From an uncultured Planctomycetia bacterium (GTDB taxonomy: Bacteria > Planctomycetota > Planctomycetia > Pirellulales > S012-138): DNA of 64,000 nt. Where the stretch lies: positions 263,191-327,190 of the forward strand of contig CAVSWR010000036.1 in NCBI GenBank assembly GCA_963731685.1, read 5' to 3'. Under the pieces are notes generated by a model, which ran no database searches, had not been told where the DNA came from, and saw only the letters and a program-made list of their open reading frames with translations. Of this stretch, positions 10,939 to 64,000 are shown piece after piece. A program made the translations under genes and the position numbers. The stretch's first letter is position 1. The number at the start of each line of letters is the position of its first letter.

Positions 10939-10981
10939 GCTACGGAAGGTTGTGTTCGACTCCAGCCGCCCTGCCGGGAAT

Positions 10982-11964: not shown

Positions 11965-12969
11965 TCACTCGGTGATTCTCAATTCGCCCAGCGCCGTCAA
12001 CACGGCCTCGTGCAGCGCGCCGTTTGTGGCGACCAGTCCTCGGTTGGCGGTTAATTCGGCGCCGCGGCCAAAATCCAACGGCTTGCCGAGAAGGTCGGAG
12101 ACCCCGCCTCCGGCTTCTTCCACTAACAGCGCGCCGCTGGCGTGGTCCCAGATCTTCTCGCGGCGGTTCACGCGTTTGGGCGCCCTAAAATAGGCGTCAA
12201 CCTGGCCCCTTGCCACGATCGCATACTTGACCTGGCTGCCGGCGCGCAGCTTCGGCGCCGACGAGCCCAAGTGCGAAGCGACCGCCGCCGTGTTCTCCGC
12301 CCAACCCGGGCTTGTCTCGGTCGATTCGCAAAAGCGAGTCTGTGTGGGGTCCGTCTGAGGACTCACCCGAACCGGCGCCGGCTGCTGCTGGTTGTCCGAA
12401 ATCGGCCGCTGCCACGCGCCGCCGCCGCGCGCCGCAAAGAGGATGACGCCGGTTTCGGATTCGGGACGCAGGGGATCAACCGCCAACGTCGGGCATCCCA
12501 GCACGGCGACGTCAACACGGCCTTCCACAATCAACGCCAGGCAGACCGCATAGTGTTCGCCGCGAATGAAGCCCATCGTTCCGTCGATTGGGTCCATCGT
12601 CCAAAGTCTGGGAGCAAACTCTCGATGGGCGCCCCAGTCGATCCAACGGCAAACATCGTCGCTGCTGGCCGTCGGCGCCGCGCGGCGCGTCAACGCCACG
12701 GCTTGTTCCAGATAGGAAGCGCCGACGGGGGTCCGCAGTTCATCCGCCGTTTCCTCGCCAATGATCAAATCTTCGGGAAACTCCGCCCGGATGGCGCGGC
12801 ACAGCAACGCCTGGCAGGCCATATCGGCCACCGTGACGGGGCTGCCGTCGGGTTTCGTCAACACGCCGTCGGCAAGGTTGTCTTGTGCCGCGCGGCACAC
12901 CTCGCTGCACTGACGCACCACATCGACGGCCAATTGCAGCTCTGTCTCATAATCGAAATCGTTGGGCAT
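11965..12969 (-). CDS. Inositol monophosphatase / CysQ-like 3'(2'),5'-bisphosphate nucleotidase family
   Basis: WTMDPIDGT motif (W-x-DP-[IL]-DGT) together with an EE…metal-binding region. Confidence 0.75.
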   Translation of the reverse strand: MPNDFDYETELQLAVDVVRQCSEVCRAAQDNLADGVLTKPDGSPVTVADMACQALLCRAIRAEFPEDLIIGEETADELRTPVGASYLEQAVALTRRAAPTASSDDVCRWIDWGAHREFAPRLWTMDPIDGTMGFIRGEHYAVCLALIVEGRVDVAVLGCPTLAVDPLRPESETGVILFAARGGGAWQRPISDNQQQPAPVRVSPQTDPTQTRFCESTETSPGWAENTAAVASHLGSSAPKLRAGSQVKYAIVARGQVDAYFRAPKRVNRREKIWDHASGALLVEEAGGGVSDLLGKPLDFGRGAELTANRGLVATNGALHEAVLTALGELRITE

Positions 12970-44195: not shown

Positions 44196-45194
44196 ATGCG
44201 AAACGCAATTCTCACGACGGGCCTGATCGCGCTGGCCCTGCTGGCGCAAGACGCTCGCGGCCAAGCTAACGACCAGCCGCGGGGTCTCTCGCCCGAGCGG
44301 CGAGCCGTGGCGTTTCTGTCGCGCGAAGTTCCGCGCTGGCGCACGGCGAACAAGTGCTACTCGTGCCACAACAACGGCGACGGTGCGCGGGCGTTGCTCC
44401 AGGCGGCGAAGGCAGGTGTCGCCTTCGATCGCACGGCGCTGCGCGATTCGATTGACTGGCTCGGCCATCCGCAGCGTTGGGCCGACCGGCAAGGCGACGG
44501 AGAATTCAAGAACGAGACCTTGTCGACGATTCAATTCGCCTCAGCCTTGCGCCTCGCCACGCGGCAGGGCCTGGTGAAGACCAAGACCCCGCTGACTCAG
44601 GCGGCCGAAATGGTCGTGAAGTTTCAAGAGCCCGACGGGTCTTGGAAACCCGACCGGCAAGGCGCCGTCGGCTCGCCGGTGACGTATGGAACACCGCTGG
44701 CCACGGCCATGTGTTTGCAGATTCTCTCGCAAGCCGGCCGCGACAAGTTCCGGGGGCCGATCGCCAAGGCCGAAGCGTGGCTGCGCCAGCGGAAGCCGGT
44801 CAACGTGCCGGACGCCGCCGCGACGCTGATCGGCCTGGCCGCGAGCGATGACGACTTGGCCGTGCGGCAGCGCCGCCATTGCCTCGACTTGCTGCGGCGG
44901 GCTGAAGACAAATCCGGCGGCTGGGGGCCGTTCGCCAGTTCCGCGCCCGAGCCGTTCGACACCGGCTTGGCGCTGCTGGGATTGGCGGCCGTTTCGGGCG
45001 AAGACGCCGCGCGGCGGGAGATGATCCAACGCGGGCGGCGTTACCTGGTCGGGCAGCAACTCGAAGACGGGAGCTGGCCGGAAACAACGCGGCCGCCCGG
45101 CGCCGAGAGCTACGCCCAACGGGTCTCGACTACGGCTTGGGCGGCGCAGGCGTTGCTGGCGACGCGGAAACCGGGACGCGAGCCGCGCAAATAA
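44196..45194 (+). CDS. Prenyltransferase/squalene-oxidase-repeat-like secreted protein
   Basis: Signal peptide. Repeated …DGSW… motifs (QEPDGSWKPD, DKSGGWGPF, LEDGSWPET) typical of the terpenoid-cyclase-like alpha/alpha toroid repeat. Confidence 0.55.
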   Translation: MRNAILTTGLIALALLAQDARGQANDQPRGLSPERRAVAFLSREVPRWRTANKCYSCHNNGDGARALLQAAKAGVAFDRTALRDSIDWLGHPQRWADRQGDGEFKNETLSTIQFASALRLATRQGLVKTKTPLTQAAEMVVKFQEPDGSWKPDRQGAVGSPVTYGTPLATAMCLQILSQAGRDKFRGPIAKAEAWLRQRKPVNVPDAAATLIGLAASDDDLAVRQRRHCLDLLRRAEDKSGGWGPFASSAPEPFDTGLALLGLAAVSGEDAARREMIQRGRRYLVGQQLEDGSWPETTRPPGAESYAQRVSTTAWAAQALLATRKPGREPRK

Positions 45195-47626: not shown

Positions 47627-47699
47627 GGGGACGTAGCTCAATCGGGAGAGCACCGGCTTTGCAAGCCGGGGGTTGGCGGTTCGATCCCGCTCGTCTCCA
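47627..47699 (+). tRNA. tRNA-Ala (anticodon TGC)
   Basis: Cloverleaf GGGGACG/CGTCTCC acceptor stem with the G3:U70 Ala identity pair. Anticodon loop TTTGCAA. T-arm GGTTCGATCC. Discriminator A. CCA is not encoded. Confidence 0.9.
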
Positions 47700-47702
47700 C
47701 TA

Positions 47703-47736
47703 AATGGCCACTCGCAGATTCCTGTAAGTGGCCATT
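47703..47736 (+). other. Perfect 10-bp hairpin AATGGCCACT-n14-AGTGGCCATT immediately 3' of tRNA-Ala
   Basis: Read directly from the sequence. Could be a tRNA terminator or an island attachment-site structure. Confidence 0.5.
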
Positions 47737-47777
47737 GTTATTGCGCTTGCATCTACACCTGCGCCGCCGAAATTGCC

Positions 47778-47865
47778 TGATTTTGTCTGCTGTGTCTGAT
47801 TTTGTGTCTGAGAATCGCCTCTTTGTGTCTGATCTTGGCCCCTATAATGCCATTTTCAGACACGA
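47778..47865 (+). promoter_or_regulatory. Operator-like cluster: 3-4 direct repeats T(T)TGTGTCTGA, one inverted copy TCAGACAC, and a perfect TATAAT (47843-47848)
   Basis: TGTGTCTGA at 47791, 47804 and 47824. A degenerate copy at 47778. Inverted copy at 47857. TATAAT lies between them, 55 nt upstream of a small ORF. Confidence 0.45.
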
Positions 47866-47963
47866 GACTCCACTTGATTCAGCGAGTCATGGGCGATGGC
47901 TAAGGAAACTCCATCATCGCGAAAGACAAGGTCGATACTCTCAAGATTCGTGCTCGCGCAATC

Positions 47964-48152
47964 GTGGGGCGCGATGGCGATTCCAAACAGGTTGCTGCGC
48001 TACGCAACCTGAATGCTCACCTTCACGGCATCGAGATCATTACGTACGATCAGTTGCTGCGGATCGCCGCCCGAGTACTCGACGTCTTTGAAACTGCTGG
48101 CACCGCTACAACAGAAGCAACTGCTGACTCAGATGCGGAGATTCAGTTCTAA
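47964..48152 (+). CDS. Small hypothetical ORF (GTG start; frame open from 47904) downstream of the regulated promoter
   Basis: …KDKVDTLKIRARAIVGRDGDSKQVAALRNLNAHLHGIEIITYDQLLRIAARVLDVFE… with an acidic tail. No family recognised. Confidence 0.3.
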   Translation: MGRDGDSKQVAALRNLNAHLHGIEIITYDQLLRIAARVLDVFETAGTATTEATADSDAEIQF

Positions 48153-48296
48153 CCGCCCACCAAGAAAACTGCTGAACCAATAACGCAACCAATAAGGCTT
48201 TGACTTCGCGAGCTTGCGAGCCGGAATAGGCCGGTCGGCTCGCTTCGCTCGGCAGCGTCAACCCCCGGCCACGTTATCCAAAACATTCTGTGGCAG

Positions 48297-48800
48297 ATGA
48301 GTCTGGATCATGAATCCTTCACAATGAACGACATCGAGACACAACCTCCCCAGCGAATCCAGTTCGGCATTCGTGCTCTTCTCGGAGCGGTCACGCTGGT
48401 GGCTGCATTCTCCTCTGCGTATGCTTGGTTTCACCGCGCGTATATTTCCCCTCGCCGCCATTCGGAGGCCGTAGAACGACTGATCGAGTCACTGGTTGAC
48501 CGACGGCCGCCTGACATGACGCGTGGACAATGGGGTTGTGCCGTTGCCTGGACGCTTAACTTGCATGGCAACAGTCTTCTGCAGTTCGAGGCCACCGGCC
48601 CCACTATTGAAGCGTTTAAGCAACGGCTGAAACAGAAACTTGACGGCGACGTCGATTTGGAGACCATTCACTGGATCTGGGATGAATATGCAGGCATTTG
48701 TCCACACGGCGCTAGCTACCAGCGGTTTAAGGCCCAAATGCAGGATGAGATTGCCAACGTCGGCCCAAATGACGACCCTTGGTCAATGAGGGTACCCTAG
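48297..48800 (+). CDS. Hypothetical protein, lower GC, island-borne
   Basis: 167-aa ORF with an N-terminal hydrophobic helix ALLGAVTLVAAFSSAYAWF. Confidence 0.45.
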   Translation: MSLDHESFTMNDIETQPPQRIQFGIRALLGAVTLVAAFSSAYAWFHRAYISPRRHSEAVERLIESLVDRRPPDMTRGQWGCAVAWTLNLHGNSLLQFEATGPTIEAFKQRLKQKLDGDVDLETIHWIWDEYAGICPHGASYQRFKAQMQDEIANVGPNDDPWSMRVP

Positions 48801-48915
48801 CGCACGTGTGGTGGCGCACTCTGATCCGCAGATCCTGCCAGATAACCAAGGCTCCTCCCGCGGACACGTCCCCCACGCTTAGATCGAGACGTACCCGACG
48901 GGAAAAAGGTTCTCG

Positions 48916-51693
48916 GTGCCAGCCCGGGTTGATACAATCAGCAAAGCAAATGCCGCGCCCCGGCCCGACTACGACCGCGACCTGGCGCTGCTCGACGCCG
49001 ACACCGGCTACCAGTCCGACAGCGCCGCCCGCTACGCCAGTGAGATGCTCGCGCTGGCCCAAGGCAGCGACACGCCCTGGGGCTGGGAGCACTCTGCGGA
49101 GGCCGCCGCCGCGGCCGAATACGCCTCCTCGATGGCCGCCGCCGCACTGACCGACGGCACGGCCACGATCGACGAGAGCTACACGTTCGCGCAGACCGTG
49201 GCCGACGAGACCCGCACGCTTTCGGTTAACGAGGCCACGGCCGCCTTCAATTCCGCCACGGCGCTGGCCGCGGCCGAGTACAACCACGTGACGTCCCACG
49301 CCACGGCCCTGGCCAACGACAACTACGACATCGCCGAGCGCGTGCCGACGGCGGTGATCACCTTGGTGGGATTGGACGACCTGGATGGCCGCGCGGCCGG
49401 CGACCCGGCCGACTTCATCGCGGCCTTGAACAAGAACGGCGGCTCCCCGTTCAGTGACCTCGGCGACAGCTTCTACACGGCGGCCGTCGACAAGATGTTC
49501 TACACGCCGCCGGAGACCGACGAACTCGGCTACAGCAACAGCTTCGACCGCTGGCTCGGCGAGAACCTCATCCGCCCCGCCGTCGGCGACGACAACCTCA
49601 TCAACGCCACCGACGCCCAGCTATTCTGGGGCACCGCGGCCTTCGCCGCGATAAGCGCGGTGAGCATTGTCTACGCCGCCCCAGTGCTCGCCACGGCCGT
49701 GGTCGACATGGGCATCAAGGGGGTGGTGTTCACACTGGCGAAAGATTTCATCATTGGCGGCGCGATCTCTGGCATCATCGACGCGGGCGTGCAGTTGGAG
49801 CACATGTACGAAAACGGCGGCGACTTCAATTGGAGTCGACTCGGCGAGTCCATCGTCGTGGGCGGTGTGATGGGCATGGGGATGGGAACGGCCTTCCGCG
49901 GCGTGCAGACCTTGTCGAAGGCCCTCACCACGCGCTACGCCGCGGCTTGCGTGCCGGTCACCATCGGCCAAAAGCTGGGGCTCGGCTACTTGGGCAGCAA
50001 GGGCATCGCTCATGGCGTCGAGGCCATCGGCAACGGCGAGACGGTCGAAGGCGTCAGCAGCATCTTGTTCGGCGCCCTCGGCGTGGCCGGCGCCCTGTCC
50101 ATGCGTTGGAACTGCTTCACGGCCGGCCATCAGATTCTCGCCTTGCCGCTCGGCGTGACCGTCGCTGAAGCTTCGGCAAGCATGAGCGACGAAACGCGAG
50201 GTTGGCGAACTGAGTATTTCATCGGCGCCAGCGTGGCGATTGCGGTCGGCATGACCGGTTGGGTGCGCGAACGCCGCAAACGCCGGCGACTGTTGGCGCA
50301 AGCCCGCGACCATGTGTATGGTTCCCAGTGGGAATCAAACTCGCGACATGACCTCGACGATGACGCATATCCAGATTTGATGCCGGAAGCAATCGCCATG
50401 GATGACGCCGAGGCTACTATTTGGGCGGATGAATCGTACCTGCCGGACGCGGACTATTTTGATGAGCGCGCAGCTCTACTTCAGGCGCTGAACAAGCTTG
50501 CGGCGTAGCGTGCCTACCGCGGCCACAAGCGGAGTTGATTCGCGATCCGCGCGCCGCGAAGCCATCCGCTGCGCGCAAAGCGAAGATCCCGGCCGATCAG
50601 CCGAGAGAATCACATCGCGGCGCGTCTATGGATCGGCCTTTCACTCATCGTCGCTTTCTTCTGTCTTTTCCAGGCGCTGCCCCGTTGGTCGCGCACCGAC
50701 GGCCTTTCTTCGTCGCGCACGCGACACGCTGTCGCTCCGTCTTCGCTCGACACGAATATCGCCAGCGACTACCGCGTCGGCGCCGAGAACTACAAGTTCT
50801 TCAACATCGAGGACATTCGCCCGGGACAGCTGGTCCTGGCGTCCAACCCTGCCACCGGCCAGCTTGAACCGCGCCGTGTCCTCCAAACCTTCCAGCGCAC
50901 AACCTACCACCTCCGCTACCTGACCTTCGAGTCTACCACCGGCGTCCGCCAAACCTTCGAGACAACGGACGAGCACCCGTTCTGGTCGCAATCTGAATTC
51001 CGCTGGGTATCCGCCGGCGACCTCCAACCCGGTGACCGCGTCATCGACCCGCACGGCGCGCAATCCCTCCTCGTCACCACCCACCGCGAGCCCCACCCCG
51101 AAGGCGTAACCGTCTACAACTTCGAGGTCGAAGGCTTCCACAGCTACTTCGTAGCGGCAAAAGGCCCTGGCGGTGAGCCGGTATTGGTGCATAATGCGGA
51201 CTGCGGCCCCAACTCGCCCAGCCGCTCCAGATCCCGTCCGTCAAACGACAACTTCCGTAACGGCTATGATCGGATATTTGGAAATGGTTCATCAGCAGAA
51301 ACGCGGGTGTTCCAAAATGAAATCCCCATCATGACACCAGCGCAAACGCAGCAAGCGCTAAGGGCTGGCGGCTACACAGGAAACACTTCGTGGGCATACA
51401 GCATTCATGATCATCACATCTCTCCGCGTTGGCTGGGTGGAAAAGACGCGGGACCACTGCTACGTGTGCGAGGTTTCGAGCATATTACCGATCTCGAACC
51501 TGGACTCTGGGCGCACGTGAAGCGAAACATCCCGGGGCTGACGGAAAAAACTACTGCAAATGTGCAGCGATTGATGCGAGACGGATTCGTCACAAGTGAA
51601 GAAATCATGCGAACGTTGTTCAGTTTTTACAAGGCTCGATATCCGCAACTATCGGATGAGGCAATCCTAAACGTGCTGAGACAGGGGTTGTGA
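48916..51693 (+). CDS. Polymorphic-toxin cassette A: 5'-truncated (homology to full-length copy starts ~48965, about aa 205) with two apparent frameshifts (~50440-50470 and ~50618); Hint domain plus C-terminal toxin tip A (DHH-type putative HNH/EndoVII-fold nuclease)
   Basis: ORFs 48916..50508, 50535.. and 51184..51693 together parallel copy 57352..60717. Landmarks are CFTAGHQILAL, …VYNFEVEGFHSYFVAAKGPGGEPVLVHN, then the tip …SIHDHHISPRWLGG…. Confidence 0.55.
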
Positions 51694-51694
51694 G

Positions 51695-52162
51695 ATGAAA
51701 TTCAACGAACAGATCCAAATTCGCGGCGAACCTTTTCCTAGCCCGCTCCCGTTGCCCCCATCACAAATGATTTCCCTGCTGGAGGCGCATGGCTTGCGAT
51801 TTGTGTTCGACGATGGCGTTTTGCGACTTCGTGGCACATATGACCCGACAAGATGCGAAACTTTAAAAGCGGTGTTGGCATCTAATGACCTTGATGTGAA
51901 TGTTTGGCAGCAAGTCTGGACAACATATGACGATGACGATTTCGACATGGCTCCTCTTTGGCTCGTCTTGGGGATTCCTGAAGTACGGATAGCGGGAATT
52001 GACTTTACTGTGACTTGCCCCATGTGCGCAAGAACCAAAGTCCACGTGGATACCGATGTACAAGTTCCAAGAGTGAATACACGCAAACCAATAGTCAACG
52101 TGAATGGGCAATTTACGATCGTTGGCGCAGAACTTGCCAGCGCATCGAAACGGACTTGCTAG
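51695..52162 (+). CDS. Candidate immunity protein for toxin tip A
   Basis: ATG overlaps the toxin stop (TGAGATG). ~48% GC. 155 aa. Confidence 0.45.
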   Translation: MKFNEQIQIRGEPFPSPLPLPPSQMISLLEAHGLRFVFDDGVLRLRGTYDPTRCETLKAVLASNDLDVNVWQQVWTTYDDDDFDMAPLWLVLGIPEVRIAGIDFTVTCPMCARTKVHVDTDVQVPRVNTRKPIVNVNGQFTIVGAELASASKRTC

Positions 52163-52176
52163 GATTCTCGCTGCCC

Positions 52177-52476
52177 ATGTTTGACGTTGCGGGCAGATAC
52201 CATTATTTGCGGTCTACGTGCCAACTTCGGCACCCTGCTATTCGTTCTGCTTACGCTATTGGTCTAAGAGGGAACTGCACGCTATGTTCGCTGCCACTCT
52301 ATGACAAATTCTTCGGCCCGCTGGAGTACCCCAGAAAGGAATGGCACGATGAGGATATTGTCTACTGCGACTTTTATAGTTGCAATGCATACACACCTAA
52401 GGCATACAATTTGCTTCGGAACGCTGACTCGGCTATTGTTCGAGACCGGATCATCTTGATGGAAGCATCGACGTGA
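52177..52476 (+). CDS. Second small low-GC ORF downstream of cassette A (hypothetical; possible additional immunity gene)
   Basis: 100-aa Cys/Tyr-rich ORF (…YCDFYSCNAYTPKAYNLL…). Confidence 0.3.
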   Translation: MFDVAGRYHYLRSTCQLRHPAIRSAYAIGLRGNCTLCSLPLYDKFFGPLEYPRKEWHDEDIVYCDFYSCNAYTPKAYNLLRNADSAIVRDRIILMEAST

Positions 52477-52539
52477 GTGAGCGGCTTTTCACATCTGACC
52501 GCACTGCAGTTCAGACGTCACACAGTCCAGGACGAGAAA

Positions 52540-52660
52540 AAGCTGGTATGTGGGTAACGCGATTTTAGCAACAGCGCGTACCGATTGCGCCTCCTGCGTT
52601 GCAGTCTTTGAAAGTTCAGTCGAAGGACTCGGCGCGGTTGCGGCGATCGACTCATCTCGG
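52540..52660 (+). repeat. ~115-bp inter-cassette element, copy 1 (second copy at 60995-61108)
   Basis: …CGCG(A/G)TTTTAGCA(A/G)CAGCGCGT…GAAAGTTC(A/C)GTCGA(A/C)GGACTCGGCG(C/T)GGTTGCGGCGATCGACTCATCTCGG… is conserved at both sites. Confidence 0.7.
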
Positions 52661-52752
52661 TCGATTTTCTGAGTTGTTCTCGCCAACTTGTCATAAAAGA
52701 GGCCAAGGCGCCGAGCTGCCATATCCGGCGTGCAACTTCTCGACAGAGCGCC

Positions 52753-54088
52753 GTGCTCTTGAAAAACGGCCTTGGCTCGCCAGCTTTCGCCGGCGGCGGC
52801 GCCGACCATGTCTACGAATCGCAATGGTGGATGGAACTGCCGCGCCACGCGGATGAAGACGATGAATTCGATCGGGCGATGAGCGAAGGAATCGCCGTGA
52901 CTGACGGCGCCGATGCGGATGTCTGGTCGGACGAGTCATTCCTCCCTGAGGCCGATTCTTTCCGTGATTGCGAACCTTCGCCAACTTCCGTTGGAGTTCA
53001 CGCTTTAGGCTGCTTGACGCCGCCGCGCGCGGAACGATCAACGGCAACGGCGCGCTTTTCGAAAGGCGCCACGTTCCCATAAAACGCTTATCGAGTCCAA
53101 GCCGCCGCGCGAATCCCGCCGCGGCGCGCTCTGGCTCGGTGTTTCGCTCCTCGTGGCCTTCTTCTCTCTGTTCCAGGCCCTTCCCCGTTGGTCAGCAAAC
53201 GACGGCCTTGCGCCGACGTGCGTTGAGCAAGCCGTCACTCTCGACTCGCTCGACACCAAACTTGCCGGCGACTACCGCGTCGGCGGCGAGTCCTTCAGCT
53301 TCTTCAACATCGAGGACATTCGCCCCGGACAACTCGTCCTCGCCTCGAACCCCGCCACCGGCCAGCTTGAGCCCAAACGCGTCAAGCAAATCTTCCGCCG
53401 CATTACGGACCATCTCCGCCACCTCACCTTTGAATCCTCCACCGGCGCCCGCCAAACCTTCGAAACCACCGACGAGCACCCCTTCTGGTCGCAATCCGAA
53501 TTTCGCTGGCGCCCCGCCGGCGACCTCCAACCCGGCGACCGAGTCATCGACCCCCACGGCGCCACCTCTCTCCTCGTCGCCACGCATCGCGAACCCCACC
53601 CCGAAGGCGTCCCAGTCTACAACTTCGAGGTAGAAGGCTTCCACAGCTACTTCGTAGCGGCAAAAGGCCCTGGCGGCCAGCCAGTGTTGGTGCATAATGC
53701 AAATTCACAAACATATGGCCCCCACAAATCAATTGGAACGAAAACCGGAGAGCAACGTCATCACATAATCCAAGATGCAAGAGCCAGGATTGTCGACAAC
53801 TACAAGTATGGCGATGCTCCCGCGGTTCGACTTCGGGGGAACCGCTTGCGTGGCACGCCGCATGGCGATGCGAGCGCGATGCAAACTCGAATAAATCAGA
53901 CGCTCCTAAAGAAAGGCACGACTCGGATAAGGTATCCACAAGCTCGATCGGCGGCGCGCGCTGAACTAAGGGCCGCAGGTCTCACGGAAAAGGAAATAGA
54001 CATCTTGATAGAGGAAGCCGACGATTACTTCATAAACGAACTGAAAATTGATGTAACGCAACGCATTTTCAACGTCCCAACGCAATGA
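52753..54088 (+). CDS. Polymorphic-toxin cassette B: 5'-truncated orphan (homology starts ~52800 at ADHVYxxQW); apparent frameshift ~53040-53090; Hint domain plus toxin tip B (RHHIIQ-type putative HNH-fold nuclease)
   Basis: …VYNFEVEGFHSYFVAAKGPGGQPVLVHNANSQTYGPHKSIGTKTGEQRHHIIQDARARIV… The tip is unrelated to tips A, C and D. Confidence 0.55.
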
Positions 54089-54921
54089 AAACCTGTAACT
54101 ATGTACGTATAAGGCGTGGCCTAACTGAGTGTAAATCACTAGTCTTGGCTCATATCGAAGATGATGACTCGCCAGATGTAATAGTGAGTCAACTCATTTC
54201 TATTGGCAGCGGTGACTGCGAAATTGTGGGTGACTTTCCAGGTGAGTGGATCACGTGCTTCGACGTTCAAGAAGACCTATGTGTTGCGGTTTCGTCGCTC
54301 GGAACAATCTACGAATATCGCCATGGTAAATGGAGCATCATTGCACAATTGACCTTTCCTAATGTGATCGCTGATGTGATCATATTGGATCGTGGCACGT
54401 ACTTGATTGCTGGCCAAGGCGGATTGATAGGCGAGTGGTCGCATGATGGATTTGTGCGAACCAGAGCATCTCGACGTGTGGACTTGATCTCAATTTGTCG
54501 CGATGAAGACGGTGGTTACTTGATATGTGGTGACCAAGGAACCATCCTGAGGTATCGCGACAATGCGGTGTTTAGCGAAGATGCAGGCACGCGTGAAAAG
54601 CTAACGAGGATTCTTTGTACGAATGCAGGTTTGTCATTTGCTTGTGGTTGGAACGGCGCATTGATACGGCGCGAAAGCGGAAAATGGCTACCGATGGATA
54701 GTGGCACAGATTGGTGCCTTACCGGGATCGCAATCACCGATCACGACCAAGTCTATGTGGCAGGTGGCGGGCTCGCCCGAGTTGGAAACGGTACTTGCTG
54801 TGTAGAAATAGATTCTGATCTAACGAATACATATTTATTTGACATATGGAAGATTCGTGACGAGCAGTTTATCGTTACCGGCGTGGACCAGGTATTGACT
54901 GGACCTCCGTGGAAAGTTTAA
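54085..54921 (+). CDS. Candidate immunity protein for toxin tip B
   Basis: ATGA start/stop overlap. ~45% GC. 278-aa protein with repeated G-x-L/I-rich units suggesting a repeat/propeller fold. Confidence 0.45.
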   Translation: MKTCNYVRIRRGLTECKSLVLAHIEDDDSPDVIVSQLISIGSGDCEIVGDFPGEWITCFDVQEDLCVAVSSLGTIYEYRHGKWSIIAQLTFPNVIADVIILDRGTYLIAGQGGLIGEWSHDGFVRTRASRRVDLISICRDEDGGYLICGDQGTILRYRDNAVFSEDAGTREKLTRILCTNAGLSFACGWNGALIRRESGKWLPMDSGTDWCLTGIAITDHDQVYVAGGGLARVGNGTCCVEIDSDLTNTYLFDIWKIRDEQFIVTGVDQVLTGPPWKV

Positions 54922-55062
54922 TGCAACCTTGAATATTGGTTTCAAACGTGGACTGCTGATCGTTGCGATGGTCTGCCCGTGCTACCTGTTGCGGAATTGA
55001 GGGCGACCAAGAACAGCCAAATCCGACTTGTGAGCCAGTTAGGTTCGCAACTAGCTCGGACT

Positions 55063-56712
55063 TACCTACCTGAGCGGCAAAGGCATCGCTCATGGCGTCG
55101 AGGCGATCGGCAACGGCGAGACGGTCGAAGGCATCAGTAGCGTCCTCTTGGGCGCCCTCGGCGTGGCCGGCGCCTTGTCGATGCGTTGGAACTGCTTCAC
55201 CGCCGGCCATCAGATTCTCGCCTTGCCGCTCGGCGTGACGGTGGCCGAAGCCGCGCTCGGCGCGAATGATGAAACGACCGGTTGGCGAACCGAGTATCTC
55301 ATCGGCGCCGGCGTAGCGATTGCCGTCGGCATGACCGGTTGGGCGCGCGAGCGCCGCAAACGCAGGCGATTGTTGGCGGAAGCCCGCGACCATGTGTATG
55401 GTTGCCAGTGGGAAACAAACTCGCGACATGACTTCGACGATAACGACGACCCGTTGCGGGAAGCAATCGCCATGGACCACGCGGAAGCCGCTATTTGGTC
55501 AGATGAATCGTTCCTCCCAGACGGGGATTCGTTCAATGAGCCAACAACCACGTCTTTTACTTCAGGCTCTGAACAAGCTCACAGCGTAGCGTGCCTTGCG
55601 CCGCCGCATGTGGCGCTTTCCGCTCGAATGCCGTGCGCCACGAAACCATCCGCTGCCCGCAATGCGAACGTGAAAGTTAAGACGCCGCGCCGATCCCGTC
55701 GCAGCGGTCTTTGGCTTGGTCTTTCACTCGTCGTAGCTTTCTTCTGCCTGTTCCAGGCGTTACCTCGCTGGTCTTCCACCGATGGCCTGCCATCGGCGGG
55801 CAATCGGCACGCCGTCGCTCCTTCTTCGCTCGACACGAACATCGCCAGCGACTACCGCGTCGGCGCGAACACGTACAACTTCTTCAACATCGAGGACATT
55901 CGACCCGGACAACTGGTCCTCGCCTCGAACCCCGCCACCGGCCAACTCGAACCGCGGCGAGTCCTTCAAACCTTCCGCCGCACAACCCATCACCTGCGCC
56001 ACCTGACCTTCCAATCCCCCACCGGCGCCCACCAAACCTTCGAAACCACCGACGAGCACCCCTTCTGGTCCCACGGCGCCGCCCGCTGGACCCCCGCTGG
56101 CGACCTCCAACCCGGCGACCGAGTCATCGACCCCCACGGCGCCAATCCCTACTCATCGCCACCCGCCGCGACCCCCATCCCGAAGGCGTCACCGTCTACA
56201 ACTTCGAGGTCGAAGGTTTCCACAGCTATTTCGTAGCCGCCAAAGGCCCTGGCGGCCAACCGGTATTGGTTCATAATGCAGCCTGCGGCCCCAACTCGCC
56301 CAGCCGGTCCAGATCCCGTCCGGCCAACGACGAATACCGTTCGAGTTACGACCGGATTTTTGGTGGCACCCCTAGGGGCGGAGCACATCCTGCTACTAAG
56401 AAAGCTGCAAGTTTTGGCAGTACAATGCATGCCGATAAACCCGGACACCTTCCGGACCAACTGCGTCAACGCTTTCCAGAGACTGAGTTTGAATTCACCA
56501 AACCGGGCGTTGCAGGACAAGATGTAAAGGTCGCGGGTGGCAAACACCCTTCGGATTACGCTGGATCGACGTGGCCAAGCGGAGTTAACCATGCTGATTT
56601 CAAACCGAATACCCCCGGTGGCTTGAAGACGTTCCAATCCGACCAGCTCAAGAAATGGTTGGAGAGGACCGAAATGTTACGCTACAATCCATCAACCGGA
56701 GACCTACTGTGA
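55063..56712 (+). CDS. Polymorphic-toxin cassette B2: 5'-truncated orphan (homology starts ~55063, just before the CFTAGHQ motif); 1-nt deletion ~56150; Hint domain plus toxin tip C (unassigned)
   Basis: ORFs 55148..56236 and 55711..56712. The tip shares its first ~25 aa (ACGPNSPSRSRSRPANDEYRSSYDRIFGG) with tip A and then diverges (…HADKPGHLPDQLRQRFPETEFEFTKPGVAGQDVKVAGGKHPSDYAGSTWPSGVNHADFKPNTPGG…). Confidence 0.5.
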
Positions 56713-57152
56713 TTAGCAAACAATTGGCGTATCCAGGGTTTACGATTGATGTTCCATGCAGCTGGGATGATATTACGGCGACTCTTGATGATGCGGACGC
56801 GCCTATTACAATCGCAGATCCTCAAGCAGGTTTGGGGGCGTTTCAGATATCGCCTGCGTTATATAAACGTGGTGTCTTACCCAAAGTGACGCCCAACGAC
56901 CTGCGGACTATGCTTCTTGAGTTTACGTCCGCTAAGGGCTTTCATGCCGCTGGCGACGTGATAGAGAATCTGGGCGACACCATTGTGGTGGGCGGCGTTT
57001 TTCGCAGTTCAAACTACGCCGTGGAAGTTGCCTACGCCTCTGACGGGCGGAGTATTCTGTTGGTAACCTATGTTTGTGAATGGTTTCAGAGGCGTCAGGA
57101 ATCGGACGTGAGAATGGCAGTGATCCGCTCAATCCGCTTTGTTGATTCTTAA
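56709..57152 (+). CDS. Candidate immunity protein for toxin tip C
   Basis: GTG overlapping the toxin stop (GTGA). 148 aa, soluble. Confidence 0.4.
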   Translation: MISKQLAYPGFTIDVPCSWDDITATLDDADAPITIADPQAGLGAFQISPALYKRGVLPKVTPNDLRTMLLEFTSAKGFHAAGDVIENLGDTIVVGGVFRSSNYAVEVAYASDGRSILLVTYVCEWFQRRQESDVRMAVIRSIRFVDS

Positions 57153-57351
57153 AGGCATGACGCATGACCAAGTCATGCTGTAACGACTCGTAGACCGCCA
57201 ATGCTTTAACCGAGAAGTAAAACGGGGACATCCTACTTTTTCGTTGCGGGTGCGCCGGCGTGCTGTCGAATGATCCGCCGCCGTGACCATCGTCTACGGC
57301 GGCCCGGCGATCGTCGCTGAGGTGAAGAGAAAAAGGGGATAAGTCCAATAT

Positions 57352-60300
57352 TTGCTCAATTTCAATCTGCCGTCGGTCGAGTTTTTGGTCGATCGGGCGT
57401 CGCACGAGGCGACCTGGGCCGCGGCCGAGGCGCCGCAATACGTCGCCTATCGCACGGCGGCGGCCCAGCTTCAACGCACTTACGACACCGCCGACATCAA
57501 CGCCGGGCGGGCCTGGGAAACCGCCCTGGCCACGGCCGGCTACAACCGCGACGTGGCCGAGGCCGCCGCCGAATATGCGAAAGAAACGGCCGTGGCCGCC
57601 GCGGGCAAGGCCTACGTCGACGGCGTCGCCCCCGTGGAGAGGACGCGCGCCGCCGACGTGGCCATAGCCTATCTCCTCTACGACTTCGCCGTGGCCGGCG
57701 CGCAATACGATTACGACATCGCCGATGTCCCGGACATGAACGTCTACAACGCCGCCGTGTCGGCCGCCGCGGGCGTTCGCGACGCGGCCGTCAAGACCGC
57801 CGAAAAGGCCTACGACACCGACGCCATCCAGGTCGAAAAGACGCGTCTTATCGCCCAGGCCGGCGCCGAACGTGACGCGAGCGTGGCTTTCGCCACCGCC
57901 GACGAGACTTGGCTCATCGCCGCCGCCGACGCCACGAAGACCGCCGCGCTGGCCGACGCCACGGCCGTCCACGACCGCGACCTGGCGCTGTTGAACACTG
58001 ACACCGGCTACCAGTCCGACAGCGCCGCCCGCTACGCCGATGAGATGCTCGCGCTGGCCCAAGGCAGCGACACGCCGTGGGGTTGGGAACACTCTGCGGA
58101 GGCCGCCGCCGCGGCCGAATACGCCTCCTCGATGGCCGCCGCCGCACTGACCGACGGCACAACCACGATCAACGAGAGCTACACGTTCGCGCAGACCGAG
58201 GCCGACGAGACCCGCACGCTTTCGGTCAACGAGGCCACGGCCGCCTTCAATTCCGCCACGGCGCTGGCCGCGGCCGAGTACAACCACGTCACGTCCCACG
58301 CCACGGCCCTGGCCAACGACAACTACCACATCGCCGAGCGCGTGCCGACGGCGGTGATCAACCTGGTCGGCCTGGACGACCTGGAAGGCCGCGCGGCCGG
58401 CGACCCGGCCGATTTCATCGCGGCCTTGAACAAGAACGGCGGCTCTCCCTTCAGCGACCTCGGCGACAGCTTCTACACGGCGGCCGTGGATAAGATGTTC
58501 TACACGCCGCCGGAGACCGACGAACTGGGCTACAGCAACAGATTCCAGCGCTGGCTTGGCGAGAACCTCATCCGCCCCGCCGTCGGCGACGACAATCTTA
58601 TCAACGCCAGCGACGCCGAGTTATTCTTCGGCACGGCCGCCTTCGCCACGATCGCGGCCGTCACCATCGTCTACACAGGGCCGACAATCGTTAGTTCGGT
58701 GATCGCCGCGCAGGGCGCCATCGCCGCCTTTGCCGGCAGTTCGTTTTTGGCGTATGAAGTCACGCAAGCGGCCACCGGCGCCGTCATCTCGGGCATCCTC
58801 GATGTGGCCATGCAGTTGCAAGCCGGCACGTCTTGGAGCCGCATCGACTGGGGGCAGGCCGGCATGGCCGCCTTGAACGGCGCCGTGACCGGCGCGGTTT
58901 TCGGCGCGGGCTTCAAGGGTCTCCAATTCGCCGCGACCGCCATCACCACGCGTTTCGCTGCGGCGTGCTTGCCGGTCACCTTCGGACTTAAAGGCATGAT
59001 GGCGGGCATGGCGGTCGACGGTATCAAGAATGGCGTCGAAGCGTGGAACAACGGCGACTTTGTCGGAGGCGCCACAAGCATAGCCTTTGGCATACTCGGC
59101 TTGAAAGGCGCCTTGAGTTTGGGCACAAACTGCTTCACCGCCGGCCATCAGATTCTCGCCTTGCCGCTCGGCGTGACGGTGGCCGAAGCCGCGCTCGGCG
59201 CGAATGATGAAACGACCGGTTGGCGAACCGAGTATCTCGTCGGCGCCGGCGTAGCGATTGCCGTCGGCATGACCGGTTGGGCGATCGAACGCCGCAAACG
59301 CCGGCGATTGTTGGCGGAAGCCCGCGACCACGTGTATGGTTGCCAGTGGGAATCAAACTCGCGACATGAACTCGACGACGACGCCCCGTTGCGGGAAGCA
59401 ATCGCCATGGACCATGCGGAAGCCACTATTTGGGCGGATGAATCGTTCCTGCCAGACGCGGACTCGTTCTATGAGCCAACAACCACCTCTTTTACTTCAG
59501 GCTCTGAACAAGTTCACAGCGTAGCGTGCCTCGCGCCGCCGCAAGTGGCACTTTCCACTCAAACGCCGCGCACCGCAAAAACATCCGCCGCCCGCAAAGC
59601 GAAGGTACCGACCGAGCCGCAGCGTAAATCACATCGCAGCGGTCTCTGGCTGGGTCTTTCACTCGTCGTTGCTTTCTTCTGCCTCTTCCAGGCGCTACCT
59701 CGCTGGTCCCGCACCGACGGCCTAACATCAGCGGGCACCCAACACGGTGTCGCGTCCGCGTCTTTCGACACCAACTTAGGCGCCGACTACCGCGTTGCCG
59801 GCGAATCCTACCAATTCTTCAAAATCGAGGATATCCGTCCCAACCAACTCGTCCTCGCCTCGAACCCCGCCACCGGCCAACTCGAACCGCGGCGAGTTCT
59901 CCAAACCTTCCGTCGCACAACCTATCACCTGCGCCACCTGACCTTCGAGTCCCCATCCGGCGCCCGTCAAACTATCGAAACCACCGACGAGCACCCCTTC
60001 TGGGCGCAATCCGAGTTTCGGTGGCGCCCTGCCGGCGACCTCCAACCCGGCGACCGCGTCATCGACCCGCACGGCGCGCAATCCCTCCTCGTCACCACCC
60101 ACCGCGAGCCCCACCCCGAAGGCGTAGCCGTCTACAACTTCGAGGTCGAAGGCTTCCACAGCTACTTCGTAGCGGCAAAAGGCCCTGGCGGGGAACCAGT
60201 GTTGGTTCATAATGCTAGTTACGGTGAGAATGCGCCAAGGGCGGGAGTCGCGTCAGCTGGCCCGGGAGCGGCGCAATCAAAGTCCAGCGGTTTTACGATG

Positions 60301-60717
60301 TGGCGTTGGATCACTGGTGAGCCCACAAAAGCGTTTCCGCAGGCTCGATTTTCTTTCTACCGTGTCGCCAGATCAGAGAAGTTTGCTTCGCACTTTGGAT
60401 TTTCGAGAGTAGGAGCCGCAAATCGGTCCGAATACGCAGCTTTCCTGCGACAATTGCGTAGCGCTGAGTTTAGACAAAGCAACGTCGTACAAGGCGGTTG
60501 GGCTGGCCGCGGTGCTGACGGAAACATCGTTATGGCACTAAGCCAGCGCAATCTGAACAACACTATGGCTGCGACTCATGAACTGACGCATTTAGTTCGG
60601 AACTTCCGGGGGATTACGCCTTTTGAGGCTGAGGCATCAATGCGTGGAGTCTTTCGATACAGAGCTTGGATTGAGGAGGCCAGAACATGGTGGCACATGT
60701 GGAGAGGTGGGCAATGA
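57352..60717 (+). CDS. Intact polymorphic toxin (1121 aa): Ala-rich N-terminal region, variable Gly-zipper-like hydrophobic segment, split Hint domain, C-terminal HExxH (zinc-metallopeptidase-like) toxin tip D
   Basis: Single uninterrupted ORF from TTG 57352. Contains CFTAGHQILALPLG…(insert with RRKRRRLL and the TM helix LWLGLSLVVAFFCLF)…IEDIRPNQLVLASNPATGQLEPRRV…TTDEHPFW…GDRVIDP…VYNFEVEGFHSYFV…VLVHNAS, then tip D with AATHELTHLV. Confidence 0.7.
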   Translation: MLNFNLPSVEFLVDRASHEATWAAAEAPQYVAYRTAAAQLQRTYDTADINAGRAWETALATAGYNRDVAEAAAEYAKETAVAAAGKAYVDGVAPVERTRAADVAIAYLLYDFAVAGAQYDYDIADVPDMNVYNAAVSAAAGVRDAAVKTAEKAYDTDAIQVEKTRLIAQAGAERDASVAFATADETWLIAAADATKTAALADATAVHDRDLALLNTDTGYQSDSAARYADEMLALAQGSDTPWGWEHSAEAAAAAEYASSMAAAALTDGTTTINESYTFAQTEADETRTLSVNEATAAFNSATALAAAEYNHVTSHATALANDNYHIAERVPTAVINLVGLDDLEGRAAGDPADFIAALNKNGGSPFSDLGDSFYTAAVDKMFYTPPETDELGYSNRFQRWLGENLIRPAVGDDNLINASDAELFFGTAAFATIAAVTIVYTGPTIVSSVIAAQGAIAAFAGSSFLAYEVTQAATGAVISGILDVAMQLQAGTSWSRIDWGQAGMAALNGAVTGAVFGAGFKGLQFAATAITTRFAAACLPVTFGLKGMMAGMAVDGIKNGVEAWNNGDFVGGATSIAFGILGLKGALSLGTNCFTAGHQILALPLGVTVAEAALGANDETTGWRTEYLVGAGVAIAVGMTGWAIERRKRRRLLAEARDHVYGCQWESNSRHELDDDAPLREAIAMDHAEATIWADESFLPDADSFYEPTTTSFTSGSEQVHSVACLAPPQVALSTQTPRTAKTSAARKAKVPTEPQRKSHRSGLWLGLSLVVAFFCLFQALPRWSRTDGLTSAGTQHGVASASFDTNLGADYRVAGESYQFFKIEDIRPNQLVLASNPATGQLEPRRVLQTFRRTTYHLRHLTFESPSGARQTIETTDEHPFWAQSEFRWRPAGDLQPGDRVIDPHGAQSLLVTTHREPHPEGVAVYNFEVEGFHSYFVAAKGPGGEPVLVHNASYGENAPRAGVASAGPGAAQSKSSGFTMWRWITGEPTKAFPQARFSFYRVARSEKFASHFGFSRVGAANRSEYAAFLRQLRSAEFRQSNVVQGGWAGRGADGNIVMALSQRNLNNTMAATHELTHLVRNFRGITPFEAEASMRGVFRYRAWIEEARTWWHMWRGGQ

Positions 60718-60971
60718 CGGGACACACAACAAAGCTACAACGAGCGTTCTGGTGGTGGCGAAACCCGTTTGTAAAGTTAATCATGCTCATAGCCTTTTCA
60801 GCAATCGGTGGTATAGCTCTTGCAACGCATGAGCTGCCGTTCTGGGTCCGTTTTCCCATTTACATTCTGTGGAGCGTCACTGCAATTCTCACGTTGATTT
60901 GTGCCGCGGCTGTTCTATTGGAGGAACGCGCGCGAAAGAAAAGGCGGAAAGTGTCGGAGGATAAATCATGA
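60714..60971 (+). CDS. Candidate immunity protein for tip D: small two-TM membrane protein
   Basis: ATGA overlap with the toxin stop. Hydrophobic helices LIMLIAFSAIGGIALA and ILWSVTAILTLICAAAVLL, then a KKRRK tail. Confidence 0.5.
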   Translation: MTGHTTKLQRAFWWWRNPFVKLIMLIAFSAIGGIALATHELPFWVRFPIYILWSVTAILTLICAAAVLLEERARKKRRKVSEDKS

Positions 60972-60994
60972 GTTGATGAGGGAAAAAAGCTGTC

Positions 60995-61108
60995 ATGTGG
61001 GGAACGCGGTTTTAGCAGCAGCGCGTGCGGATCGCGGCCCAGCGTCGCGGGTTTTTCGAAAGTTCCGTCGACGGACTCGGCGTGGTTGCGGCGATCGACT
61101 CATCTCGG
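60995..61108 (+). repeat. ~115-bp inter-cassette element, copy 2
   Basis: Homologous to 52540-52660. Confidence 0.7.
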
Positions 61109-61321
61109 ACGGAAGAAAGGACGCGGGCGCATATATTGGGACACTTGCACAATCTGTCGGAGAAAGGAGGACATTCTACTTTTCCTGAATACGTGGAACG
61201 CCCCTTTGTTGTCAGAGCGCGACCTCACTGGCGGCAACTTCCTCCGTGACGGCCTTGTGATCGACTCGTCCGTTTCCTGCGACGACGATGTCCACACGTC
61301 GGTCGCCACACACGGAGGAGA

Positions 61322-64000
61322 TAAGTCCAATATTTCCTCCGTTCCCTTGCTCAATTACAACCTCCCGTCGGTCGATTTTCTGGTCGATCGGGCGTCGCAC
61401 GAGGCGACCTGGGCCGCGGCCGAGGCGCCGCAATACGTGGCCTATCGCACGGCGGTGGCCGGGTTGCAACGGGCTTACGACACGGCCGACATCAACGCCG
61501 GGCGGGCCTGGGAAACCGCCCTGGCCACGGCCGGCTACAACCGCGACGTGGCCGACGCCGCCGCCGAGTATGCGAAAGAAACGGCCGTGGCCGCCGCCGG
61601 CAAGGCCTACGCCGACGGCGTCGCCCCCGTGGAGAGGACCCGCGCCGCCGCCGTGGCCGCCGCCTATCGCGTCTACGACCTCGCCGTGGCCGACGCCCAG
61701 CGCGATTACGACACGGCCGATGTCCCGGATATGAACGCCTACAACGCCGCCGTGTCGGCCGCCGCGGGCGTTCGCGACGCGGCCGTCAAGACCGCCGAGA
61801 AGGCCTACGACACCGGGGCCATCCAGGTCGAAAAGACGCGTCTCATCGCCCAGGCCGGCGCCGAGCGTGACGCGAGCGTGGCTTTCGCCACGTCCGACGA
61901 GACTTGGCTCATCGCCGCCGCCGACGCCACGAAGACCGCCGCGCTGGCCGACGCCGCGGCCGTCCACGACCGCGACCTGGCGCTGCTGAACACCGACACC
62001 GGCTACCAGTCCGACAGCGCGGCCCGCTACGCCGACGAGATGCTCGCGCTGGCCCAAGGCAGCGACACGCCCTGGGGCTGGGAACACTACGCGGAGGCCG
62101 CCGCCGCGGCCGAATACGCCTCTTCGATGGCCACGGCCGCACTGACCGACGGCACAACCACCATCAACGAAAGCTACGCGTTCGCCCAAACCGAGGCCGA
62201 CGAGACCCGCACGCTTTCGGTGAACGAGGCCACGGCCGCCTTCAATTCCGCCACGGCGCTGGCCGCGGCCGAGTACAACCACGTCACGTCCCACGCCACG
62301 GCCCTGGCCGACGACAACTACCACATCGCCGAGCGCGTGCCGACGGCGGTGATCAACCTGGTCGGCCTGGACGATCTGGAAGGCCGCGCGGCCGGCGACC
62401 CGGCCGACTTCATCGCGGCCTTGAACAAGAACGGCGGCTCTCCCTTCAGCGACCTCGGCGACAGCTTCTACACGGCGGCCGTCGACAAGATGTTCTACAC
62501 GCCGCCGGAGACCGACGAACTCGGCTACAGCAACAGCTTCGACCGCTGGCTCGGCGAAAACCTCATCCGCCCCGCCATCGGCGACGACAATCTCATCAAC
62601 GCCACCGACGCCCAGCTATTCTGGGGCACCGCGGCCTTCGCCGCGATAAGCGCGGTGACCATCGTCTACGCCACCCCAGTGCTCGCCACGGCGGTGGTCG
62701 ACATGGGCATTAAGGGTGTGGCGTTCACTCTCGCGAAGGATTTCATAATCGGCGGCGCGATTTCTGGCGTCATCGACGCCGGAGTCCAGTTGGAGCACAT
62801 GTACGAAAACGGTGGTGACTTCAATTGGAGCCGACTCGGCGAGTCCGTCGTCGTGGGCGGCGTGATGGGCATGGGCATGGGAACCGCCTTCCGCGGCGTG
62901 CAGACCTTGTCGAAGGCCCTCACCACGCGCTACGCGGCGGCTTGCGTGCCGGTCACCATCGCCCAAAAGCTGGGGCTTACCTACCTGAGCGGCAAGGGCA
63001 TCGCGCATGGCGTCGAGGCGATCGGCAACGGCGAGACGGTCGAAGGCGTCAGTAGCGTCCTGTTGGGCGCCCTCGGCGTGGCCGGCGCCTTGTCGATGCG
63101 CTGGAACTGCTTCACCGCCGGCCATCAGATTCTCGCCTTGCCGCTCGGTGTGACCGTCGCCGACGCTGCGCATCGGCGGCAAGTGATGAAACGAGCGGTT
63201 GGCGAACGGAGTATCTCATCGGCGCCGGCGTGGCGATTGCCGTCGGCATGACCGGTTGGGCGCATGAACGCCGCAAACGCAGGCGACTGTTGGCGCAAGC
63301 GCGCGACCATGTGTATGGTTGCCAGTGGGAATCAAACTCGCGACATGATGTTGACGACGACGACGAATCGAGCCCGTTGCGGGAAGCAATCGCCATGGAC
63401 GACGCGGAAGCCGCTATTTGGTCGGATGAATCGTTTCTGCCAGACGCGGATTCGTTTGATGAGCCAGCAACTACCTCCTTCGCTTCAGGCGCCGAGCAGT
63501 TCACGGCGTAGCATGCCTGCCGCCGCCGCAAGCGGCGCAGTTGATTCAAACGCCGCGCGCCGCAAAACCATCCGCTGCCCGCAAAGCGAAGATCCGACCG
63601 AGCCGCTGCGAGAATCACATCGCGGCGGTCTTTGGTTTGGTCTTTCACTCGTCGTCGCTTTCTTCTGCCTCTTCCAGGCGCTACCCCGCTGGTCCCACAC
63701 CGACGGCCTTCAATCAGCGCGCACTCGACACGGTGTCGCTCCGCTTCTCTCGACACGAACATCGCCAGCGACTACCGCGTCGGCGCGCGACACCTACAAA
63801 TTCTTCAACATCGAGGACATTCGTGCCGGACCAACTCGTCCTCGCCTCGAACCCCGCCACCGGCCAACTTGAACCGCGGCGCGTTCTCCAAACCTTCCGT
63901 CGCACAACCTATCACCTGCGCCACCTAACCTTCCAGTCCCCCACCGGCGCCCGTCAAACCTTCGAAACCACCGACGAGCACCCCTTCTGGTCTCACGGCG
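61322..64000 (+). CDS. Polymorphic-toxin cassette D (3' end outside window): starts at the same boundary as the intact copy (GDKSNI…LLNYNLPSVDFLV); three or more apparent frameshifts (~63165, ~63505, ~63790)
   Basis: ORF 61086..63251 matches copy 57352.. from 61322 on. The central hydrophobic segment is of the cassette-A type. After CFTAGHQILALPLGVTVA the frame is lost and resumes in ORFs 63230.., 63264.. and a further frame to the window end. Confidence 0.55.

Follow-up and report, generated by a model that had tools for sequence, protein, structure and literature searches.

Why does the chromosome of an uncultured bacterium of the Planctomycetota carry a row of toxin-gene ends that begin at staggered points, and do these ends serve to exchange the terminal, toxin-bearing part of a larger gene? 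The question is raised by a window of 64,000 nt (GC ~62%) of contig CAVSWR010000036.1 in the metagenome-assembled genome (MAG) GCA_963731685.1, by which we mean the whole stretch of DNA that was analyzed. Comparing the window with itself by blastn and tblastn, we uncovered five tandem, co-oriented copies on the + strand, from ~48.9 kb to the window end, of the 3′ part of a PT-HINT polymorphic-toxin gene. PT-HINT (PF07591), matched in the copies termed C and B below, is the pre-toxin HINT domain that lies directly upstream of a variable C-terminal domain. We consider it likely that the region between 47.7 and 64 kb is a silent array of orphan cassettes of a giant PT-HINT polymorphic toxin, the conserved arms of which recombine to replace the tips.

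Each unit combines a GC-rich arm, which is the 5′-truncated, conserved 3′ part of the toxin gene up to the VHNA motif, with a low-GC tip comprising a toxin domain and a coupled small ORF. All units lie on the + strand and were delimited by alignments and ORF calls. In cassette A, an arm equivalent to aa 204-958 of C (48961-51195), ending at the VHNA end of PT-HINT, is followed by a tip (51196-52162; GC 49-53%) with a toxin domain to 51693 and a presumed immunity ORF of 155 aa (51695-52162). Cassette B has a shorter arm (52803-53700, aa 659-958 of C; PT-HINT E=7.9e-21), and its tip (53701-54921) consists of a toxin to 54088 and a 278-aa ORF (54085-54921) joined by an ATGA overlap. The arm of cassette B2 (55063-56281, aa 551-958 of C) is a mosaic of D-like and C-like segments, and its tip (56282-57152) has a toxin to 56712 and, across a GTGA overlap, a 147-aa ORF (56709-57152). 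A relic of a sixth cassette (57213-57324) precedes cassette C (57352-60717; ORF call and Pfam), which encodes 1121 aa from a TTG start, is the sole uninterrupted ORF among the copies and is coupled by an ATGA overlap to a presumed immunity ORF of 85 aa with two membrane helices (60714-60971). Cassette D (61320-64000) opens with a junction motif (61320-61335), and its arm runs off the window. The product of C displays, in order, an Ala-rich N-terminal region, a multi-helix hydrophobic membrane region, the NCFTAGHQILALPLGVTVA motif (CFTAG, aa 594), two hydrophobic helices with a linker, PT-HINT (aa 824-955; E=1.7e-19) and a 166-aa C-terminal domain. For annotation, this means that the called genes P0032 (351 aa), P0029 (530 aa) and P0039 (681 aa) and the 1121-aa ORF of C are fragments of a ~3600-codon gene; P0029, P0032 and P0039 are database proteins identical to ORFs of A, B2 and D, respectively.

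The 5′ boundaries of the cassettes are sharp, with identity in pairwise alignments dropping from >90% to background within ~10 nt at each junction. An earlier note on this DNA had put the start of A at ~48965 (aa 205), that of B at ~52800 (at ARDHVY) and that of B2 at ~55063, had assigned C and D a common boundary, and had suggested a dot-plot of 48.9-64 kb against itself; our comparisons place all four boundaries within a few bases of these claims. In junction alignments, A begins at 48961 with ACGACCGCGACCTGGCGCTG (aa 204-207 of C). B begins at ~52803 with ..DHVYESQWW (aa 659), a boundary that is clearest against its closest relative in L001 and L096, two contigs of a related population. That population is represented by a single ENA metagenome assembly, ERZ25039549 (contigs L001, L096, L097 and L098), which was found by a profile search and carries sequences 80-98% identical to the window arms. 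B2, aligned to D, begins at ~55063 with CTTACCTACCTGAGCGGCAAAGGC (LTYLSGKGIA, aa 551), and the common boundary of C and D is marked by GATAAGTCCAATATTT. The window has exactly two occurrences of this sequence (57338 and 61320), with 0.09 expected by chance. At C this motif (57338-57353, + strand) is flank and not gene: the main gene of L096, which represents the full-length form in the related population, does not contain this GATAAG motif, and homology to the main gene begins right after it. As the C/D boundary is a truncation too, the window has four distinct truncation points; together with the ERZ25039549 contigs there are about 13, lying roughly at aa 1, 204, 220, 250, 340, 353, 424, 497, 519, 539-553, 577, 655-659, 769 and 870 of C.

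Some junctions also retain traces of their history. Those of C, D and two cassettes of L097 (at 6151 and 9938) go back to one ancestral junction, and the sharing of this junction indicates that whole units have also been duplicated; C has, in addition, a 13-nt deletion that puts TAA, then TTG, at the junction. The relic at 57213-57324 (~110 nt; 85% identity to L001 10427-10535) resembles the beginning of cassette X3 in L001: it has retained the 5′ flank and, of an X3-type arm, the initial 47 nt (VTIVYGGPAIVAEV, ~aa 435-450). That it breaks off at the C junction is direct evidence of one cassette having been inserted into or over another. The flank common to X3 includes the motif GGACATYCTACTTTTYC, found at 57226-57242 and 61169-61185 of the window (two matches versus 0.16 expected) and at ~10440-10455 of L001. 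In the window it precedes the junction of C by 112 nt and that of D by 151 nt.

The earlier note had regarded C as the intact gene of which the other copies are truncated versions; C proved to be 5′-truncated itself. When C aa 1-620 was compared by HMMER with a complete set of 1.84 billion representative proteins, only 25 relatives were recovered, and the scaffold is thus rare. Residues 2-611 of C align to residues 2440-3031 of the 3573-aa protein P0007 and are similarly internal in proteins of 2967, 2333, 3341 and 3204 aa. As a whole, C is colinear with the last ~1134 aa of P0007. In that protein, Big_13 repeats at the N-terminus are succeeded by Ala-rich repeats over ~1700 residues, then by the C-like part, and finally by PT-HINT and a toxin. 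Contig L096 has a ~10.8-kb gene (1716-12539, ~3600 codons) of the same order as P0007, with four orphan cassettes behind it; the coding sequence of this gene runs straight through the point at which C and D start ('...AMVSQYQAQYDAVVPLLNFNLPSVDFL'). Because the segment homologous to C is internal in the giant proteins and coding continues across the boundary in L096, all five copies are orphans. C and D are without ~2400-2600 N-terminal codons of their relatives: the first residues of C already belong to the Ala-rich region, with no signal peptide before them, and the window does not contain the N-terminal export or presentation region, which in P0007 and L096 is made up of beta-sandwich repeats (Big_13 and CarboxypepD_reg). 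The window therefore contains orphan parts of a PT-HINT system and not a complete system. The main gene of L096 has three frame changes (near 9000-9095, 10034 and 11300-11760), and either it is a pseudogene or its assembly has indel errors, which bears on the trust to be placed in frameshifts.

At the other end of the arms, similarity between the copies stops abruptly at the end of the HINT domain (VLVHNA; 60215, 51197, 53700 and 56279), and the sequence that follows, a toxin-sized open ORF and a small ORF, is different in every copy. The small ORFs (85-278 aa) stand tightly coupled behind every complete tip, joined to the toxin through ATGA, GTGA or a 1-nt spacer, and all four complete tips are open. 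These tips are compositionally foreign: GC is 62.5-66.4% in the arms, 50-55% in the toxins and 48-51% in the presumed immunity ORFs, with 62% in the rest of the window. Among the four complete tips of the window and at least ten of ERZ25039549, there is no mutual similarity beyond a ~80-nt post-HINT linker of A, B2 and X0. Pfam gave no family match for the presumed immunity ORFs of the window or for the tip of A; small ORFs in the like position in L001, L097 and L098 match immunity families of the SUKH, SMI1_KNR4, SUFU and DUF6386 types. The small ORFs of the array probably confer immunity regardless of whether tips are switched, as has been proposed for orphan cdiI genes (PMC3150448). Tips of L001 match Endonuclease_NS_2 and Ntox15, both weak assignments. 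The toxin tip of C (60217-60717) features a HELTH (HExxH) motif and has no Pfam family match; the pairing of such a putative metallopeptidase toxin with an 85-aa protein of two membrane helices (60217-60971) is unusual.

That the arms have recombined is evident from a mosaic test, in which informative-site strings from a multiple alignment of eight cassettes were examined by max-chi2 and a runs permutation. B2 is 94-98% identical to D over its first ~130 nt, then 94-99% identical to C and then D-like again. Mosaicism at p<=0.0005 was found for B2/C/D, A/C/D, X1/C/D, X3/A/D and D/C/A, with breakpoints falling repeatedly at C coordinates 59139-59184, which is the CFTAGHQILALPLGVTVA block (aa 594-611). 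Exact tracts connect the window to the related population: 408 nt between A and X3 (50625-51032 versus L001 11456-11863), 334 nt between D and the L096 main gene, and a further two (288 and 250 nt) between C and X1 (within 58585-59120 versus L001 1382-1983). These tracts sit in sequence that is otherwise 8-20% divergent between the window and ERZ25039549, which suggests very recent transfer of single modules between lineages. The first 1.3 kb of D are 98% identical to the L096 main gene.

Tips have also been replaced behind conserved junctions. The match of cassette B to L096 18332-19507 (87.5%) takes in ~270 nt of flank upstream of the cassette and ends at the HINT end; B2 matches L098 4510-5730, likewise to the HINT end; and the C/D type matches L097 at 6151 and 9938. 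The toxin and immunity sequences common to the window and the four ERZ25039549 contigs number zero. Variation is not limited to the tips: there are at least three to four unrelated membrane-region variants (shared by A and D, by C and X1, by X3 and the relic, and that of the L096 main gene), and the HINT domain of the L096 main gene is only 36% identical to that of C. Hence, where the earlier note had read the locus as recombining, the differing lengths of the arms and the recombination of the copies, seen in mosaics, exact tracts and like junctions with unlike tips, stand, and the intactness of C does not. It had also proposed to look for rearranged variants in related genomes, and in the two populations compared, individual junctions are conserved and tips and neighbors vary. 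The staggered truncation, which it had taken as a sign of tip switching, is compatible with it; the staggered ends record the orphan origin of the cassettes and are no evidence for switching as such. Close strains did not surface: a scan of GTDB genomes with C gave no match, and a scan of metagenomes with a HINT alignment gave relatives of <=53% identity only.

The reading frames of the arms differ in their state. That of C is open throughout, and those of A, B, B2 and D are disrupted: A has two in-frame stops in the linker (50506-50508 and 50536-50538), the frame of B changes once, near 53063, B2 has lost 1 nt within HINT, at 56143, and D has at least six frame-breaking single-base indels between 63170 and 63830. 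Homopolymer sequencing errors were considered as a cause of the frameshifts and set aside, the indels being outside homopolymer runs. The dN/dS of the arms is 0.13-0.35, so their divergence arose largely under protein-level constraint, either while they were in expressed genes or through exchange with such genes.

How might such an array have formed and how might it be used? We posit that the 5′ end of each cassette would have come from an illegitimate join made when a module was displaced, inserted or duplicated, with C and D being duplicates of one such event. The arms offer homology for the recombination of cassettes with one another and, as we infer, with a full-length expression gene elsewhere in the genome; this would replace the toxin/immunity tip and sometimes the whole block of membrane region and HINT. 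As there is no co-oriented main gene upstream, donation to a distant expression locus would most likely proceed by non-reciprocal gene conversion. Koskiniemi and colleagues are said, in work of 2014, to have selected deletion-type fusions between main gene and orphan experimentally for the Rhs orphans of Salmonella; since C and D come after A, B and B2 in the array, a fusion of that type could not bring the tips of the latter three onto C. If an expression locus does exist elsewhere in this genome, the array would offer a natural case for long-range gene conversion in toxin diversification.

Several observations weigh against a donor role of the array. A search of the window with the giant N-terminal 2459 aa found no homologue, there is no further copy of the cassette sequence outside the array, the window has no expression gene, and upstream of the array there are only a tRNA gene and unrelated genes; with no expression gene in view, the array could be a fossil. 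The cassettes with the strongest truncation lie upstream of the longest ones, which is the reverse of the order of main gene and then orphans seen in L096 and in the more distant metagenomic contig L005. Several arms are broken near the tip, and the B2 frameshift, ~140 nt before the HINT end, narrows the stretch in which a crossover would be productive; the sequence being that of a MAG, the frameshifts could include sequencing errors, though they lie outside homopolymer runs. The mosaics prove past recombination among members of the family, and not exchange with a main gene or ongoing switching. Within the window, the evidence for the nature of the tips consists of a sub-threshold Tox-SHH match (B, E=0.006) and the HExxH motif of C, so that their functions are predicted ones, and a search for homologues of the B toxin tip found none.

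Other explanations of the same anatomy were considered. The copies might be decaying pseudogene remnants, left by tandem duplications and deletions of a toxin gene that is no longer used, with staggered ends that are random deletion endpoints and serve no function today; such decay would account for the stops and frameshifts in A, B, B2 and especially D (at least six indels), for a window without a main gene and for the relic at 57213-57324, which shows that cassettes get destroyed. We nevertheless regard it as unlikely, given that all four complete tips and their coupled ORFs are open, dN/dS is 0.13-0.35 and not ~1, the exact tracts of 250-408 nt with a divergent population imply recent exchange, and the same junctions bear different tips in that population. 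That tips are unbroken where arms are broken, and that an intact, tightly coupled small ORF follows every tip, would also be expected if the array were kept mainly for its immunity genes, with the arms and toxin fragments hitch-hiking and not acting as recombination donors. A benefit of this kind, namely protection against the toxins of neighbors, has been proposed for orphan cdiI genes (Poole et al., PMC3150448). The toxin ORFs are open too, however, and the arms show purifying selection and recent mosaic exchange, which makes this account quite improbable as a replacement for the one we favor; it is complementary to it and does not exclude donation.

It is just as doubtful that C (and formerly D) is a genuine, stand-alone toxin gene of 1121 aa whose purine-rich element, GAGAAAAAGGGGATAAGTCCAATATTT, is a translation-initiation region. 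Its uninterrupted 3.4-kb ORF begins with TTG, at a distance of 12 nt from AAGGGGA, four copies have conserved the ~27-nt element, and the start of P0009, a relative of 1056 aa, lies only ~30 residues further upstream. Yet neither a signal peptide nor any other export domain is present in C; proteins of 3000-3600 aa have the homologous segment in their interior, and in L096 coding continues upstream; the candidate start codon is CTG in L097b and in the main gene, with TTG confined to C, D and L097a; the frame is broken in the three sister copies that share the junction; and P0009 itself begins in the middle of an Ala-rich repeat. Finally, the joins could have been created by chimeric or collapsed assembly of repeat-rich metagenome sequence, as the earlier note had allowed for the truncations, the source being a MAG and the ERZ25039549 contigs being fragmented and rich in frame changes. 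An artefact is highly improbable nonetheless, because unique sequence flanks each junction, the shift in GC coincides with functional boundaries, and junctions of the B type (with its ~270-nt flank), the B2 type and the C/D type recur in that separate assembly at 6-13% divergence.

Beyond a silent orphan array with recombining arms, a more elaborate arrangement can be imagined, which we put forward as a speculation that, taken as a whole, is rather unlikely. In it, the array would be a remote library of silent cassettes for a nested, multi-hinge exchange system, in which short conserved DNA hinges would be the preferred crossover points: a block at ~aa 435 before the membrane region, CFTAGHQILALPLGVTVA (aa 594-611) and VLVHNA (aa 950-955). 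A distant giant gene would swap either its tip or a block of membrane region, HINT and toxin by gene conversion in the manner of pilE/pilS, and the HINT domain itself may be split by a two-helix membrane hairpin of ~215 residues. Neisseria pilE/pilS, the mafB-CT cassettes and Borrelia vlsE are silent-cassette systems that work by gene conversion, and the array resembles pilS, mafB-CT and vlsE in consisting of 5′-truncated, promoterless copies, parts of which are conserved between them and an expression gene (a presumed one here) that can lie at a distance. It differs from these systems in that its window contains no expression locus, and in its purpose, which would be the diversification of toxin and immunity and not antigenic variation.

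The last element of this arrangement stems from the segment NCFTAGHQILALPLG at 59131-59184 of the window (aa 594-611 of C; CFVAGTGVV in P0009 and CFVLGTQVV in P0007). It resembles the canonical first strand of a Hint domain and lies ~215 residues before the PT-HINT body (59821-60216). The Pfam match to PT-HINT in C starts only at profile position 10, and the intervening segment consists of two hydrophobic helices, so that the HINT domain may in fact begin with CF.AG as its first strand and be interrupted by a membrane hairpin of ~215 residues. Artificial deletion constructs scored with Pfam gave no longer PT-HINT match, and an AlphaFold2 model of C aa 579-966 is of low confidence (mean pLDDT 35).

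Among known systems, the closest parallels in layout are the orphan modules of contact-dependent inhibition (CDI) and Rhs toxins (cdiA-CT/cdiI and rhs-CT/rhsI). As in these, the array consists of tandem, co-oriented pairs of toxin tip and (here presumed) immunity gene, with toxin fragments devoid of the 5′ part and with foreign tips, and the switch from conserved to variable sequence is sharp and occurs at a short motif, which is VENN or PxxxxDPxGL there and VLVHNA of HINT here. Also in common are upstream homology of variable extent and, as a rule, missing initiation signals, both of which have been described for orphan cdiA-CT/cdiI modules (Poole et al. 2011, PMC3150448). The arms described here are far longer than those of CDI/Rhs, reaching 2.9 kb or ~960 codons; the array does not lie downstream of a co-oriented main gene in the window, an order that L096 of the related population does have; and what varies appears to be a nested unit, including membrane-region variants and HINT besides the tip. 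Pfam found neither CDI hallmarks (the TpsA/TPS secretion domain, FHA repeats, VENN, cdiB) nor RHS/YD repeats in C, P0007 or the L096 main gene, and in view of these missing features the region is not a member of the CDI or Rhs class.

Rather, the anatomy of its units matches that of a HINT-class locus, for which a pre-toxin HINT before a variable toxin, an immunity gene after it and standalone cassettes have been described, planctomycetes included (Zhang, Aravind et al. 2012, PMC3482391). Within this class the scaffold, with Ala-rich repeats, a multi-helix membrane region and CF.AG ~215 residues before the HINT body, is rare. In the distant metagenomic relatives L005, L018, L007 and L010, the 3′ end of a main gene is followed by cassettes, most of which start at the HINT start (~aa 819-825 of C), whereas the starts in the window and ERZ25039549 are spread over >900 codons. 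In L005 (Ga0224508_10003224; 310-12316), for instance, the 3′ end of the main gene precedes five cassettes, nearly all of them beginning exactly where HINT does (aa ~819-820 of C). Other toxin systems have made this kind of layout familiar, and the region mainly confirms known biology; it extends the orphan-cassette layout, experimentally established for the CDI/Rhs toxins of Proteobacteria, to rare, giant, HINT-processed toxins of uncultured Planctomycetota.

Other features accompany the cassettes. A conserved non-coding element of ~125-160 nt (~80% identity), termed U, was found by repeat and profile searches on the + strand upstream of cassette B (52522-52679) and of cassette D (60969-61125), as well as at L096 18322-18481 and L098 6784-6941; the cassettes that it precedes are of three truncation types (aa 659, aa 1 and aa ~340), and it has no Rfam match. 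The idea that U is a universal 3′ recombination arm or a general cassette-flanking site was abandoned, the profile search having given these four copies only. No transposase genes were seen in the array of the window; genes for DDE_Tnp_1 transposases lie within related arrays (L097 1269-3020, L098 9302-10678 (minus strand)).

The upstream edge of the array is formed by a tRNA-Ala(TGC) gene (47627-47700, + strand; ARAGORN, Rfam 67.9 bits), which is the sole Rfam match of the window; an att-like repeat of its 3′ end was looked for across the window and none was found. Between it and cassette A lies a low-GC (54.7%) lead-in with small ORFs (47701-48960, + strand; ORF calls and GC), in which neither a Pfam match nor an integrase gene or att repeat was seen. 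Its ORFs are a 62-aa fragment (47964-48152, '...IEIITYDQLLRIAARVLDVFE...') and a 167-aa ORF with one predicted membrane helix (48297-48800). Both may be candidate remnants of an older module or an integrated element, and the latter may be a putative leftover immunity gene. Synteny was sought through the flanking gene at 44196-45194: L087 shares two genes and has neither the tRNA nor the array, and the nearest genomes are MAGs of the Planctomycetota and Pirellulaceae, at 45-49% identity of this gene.

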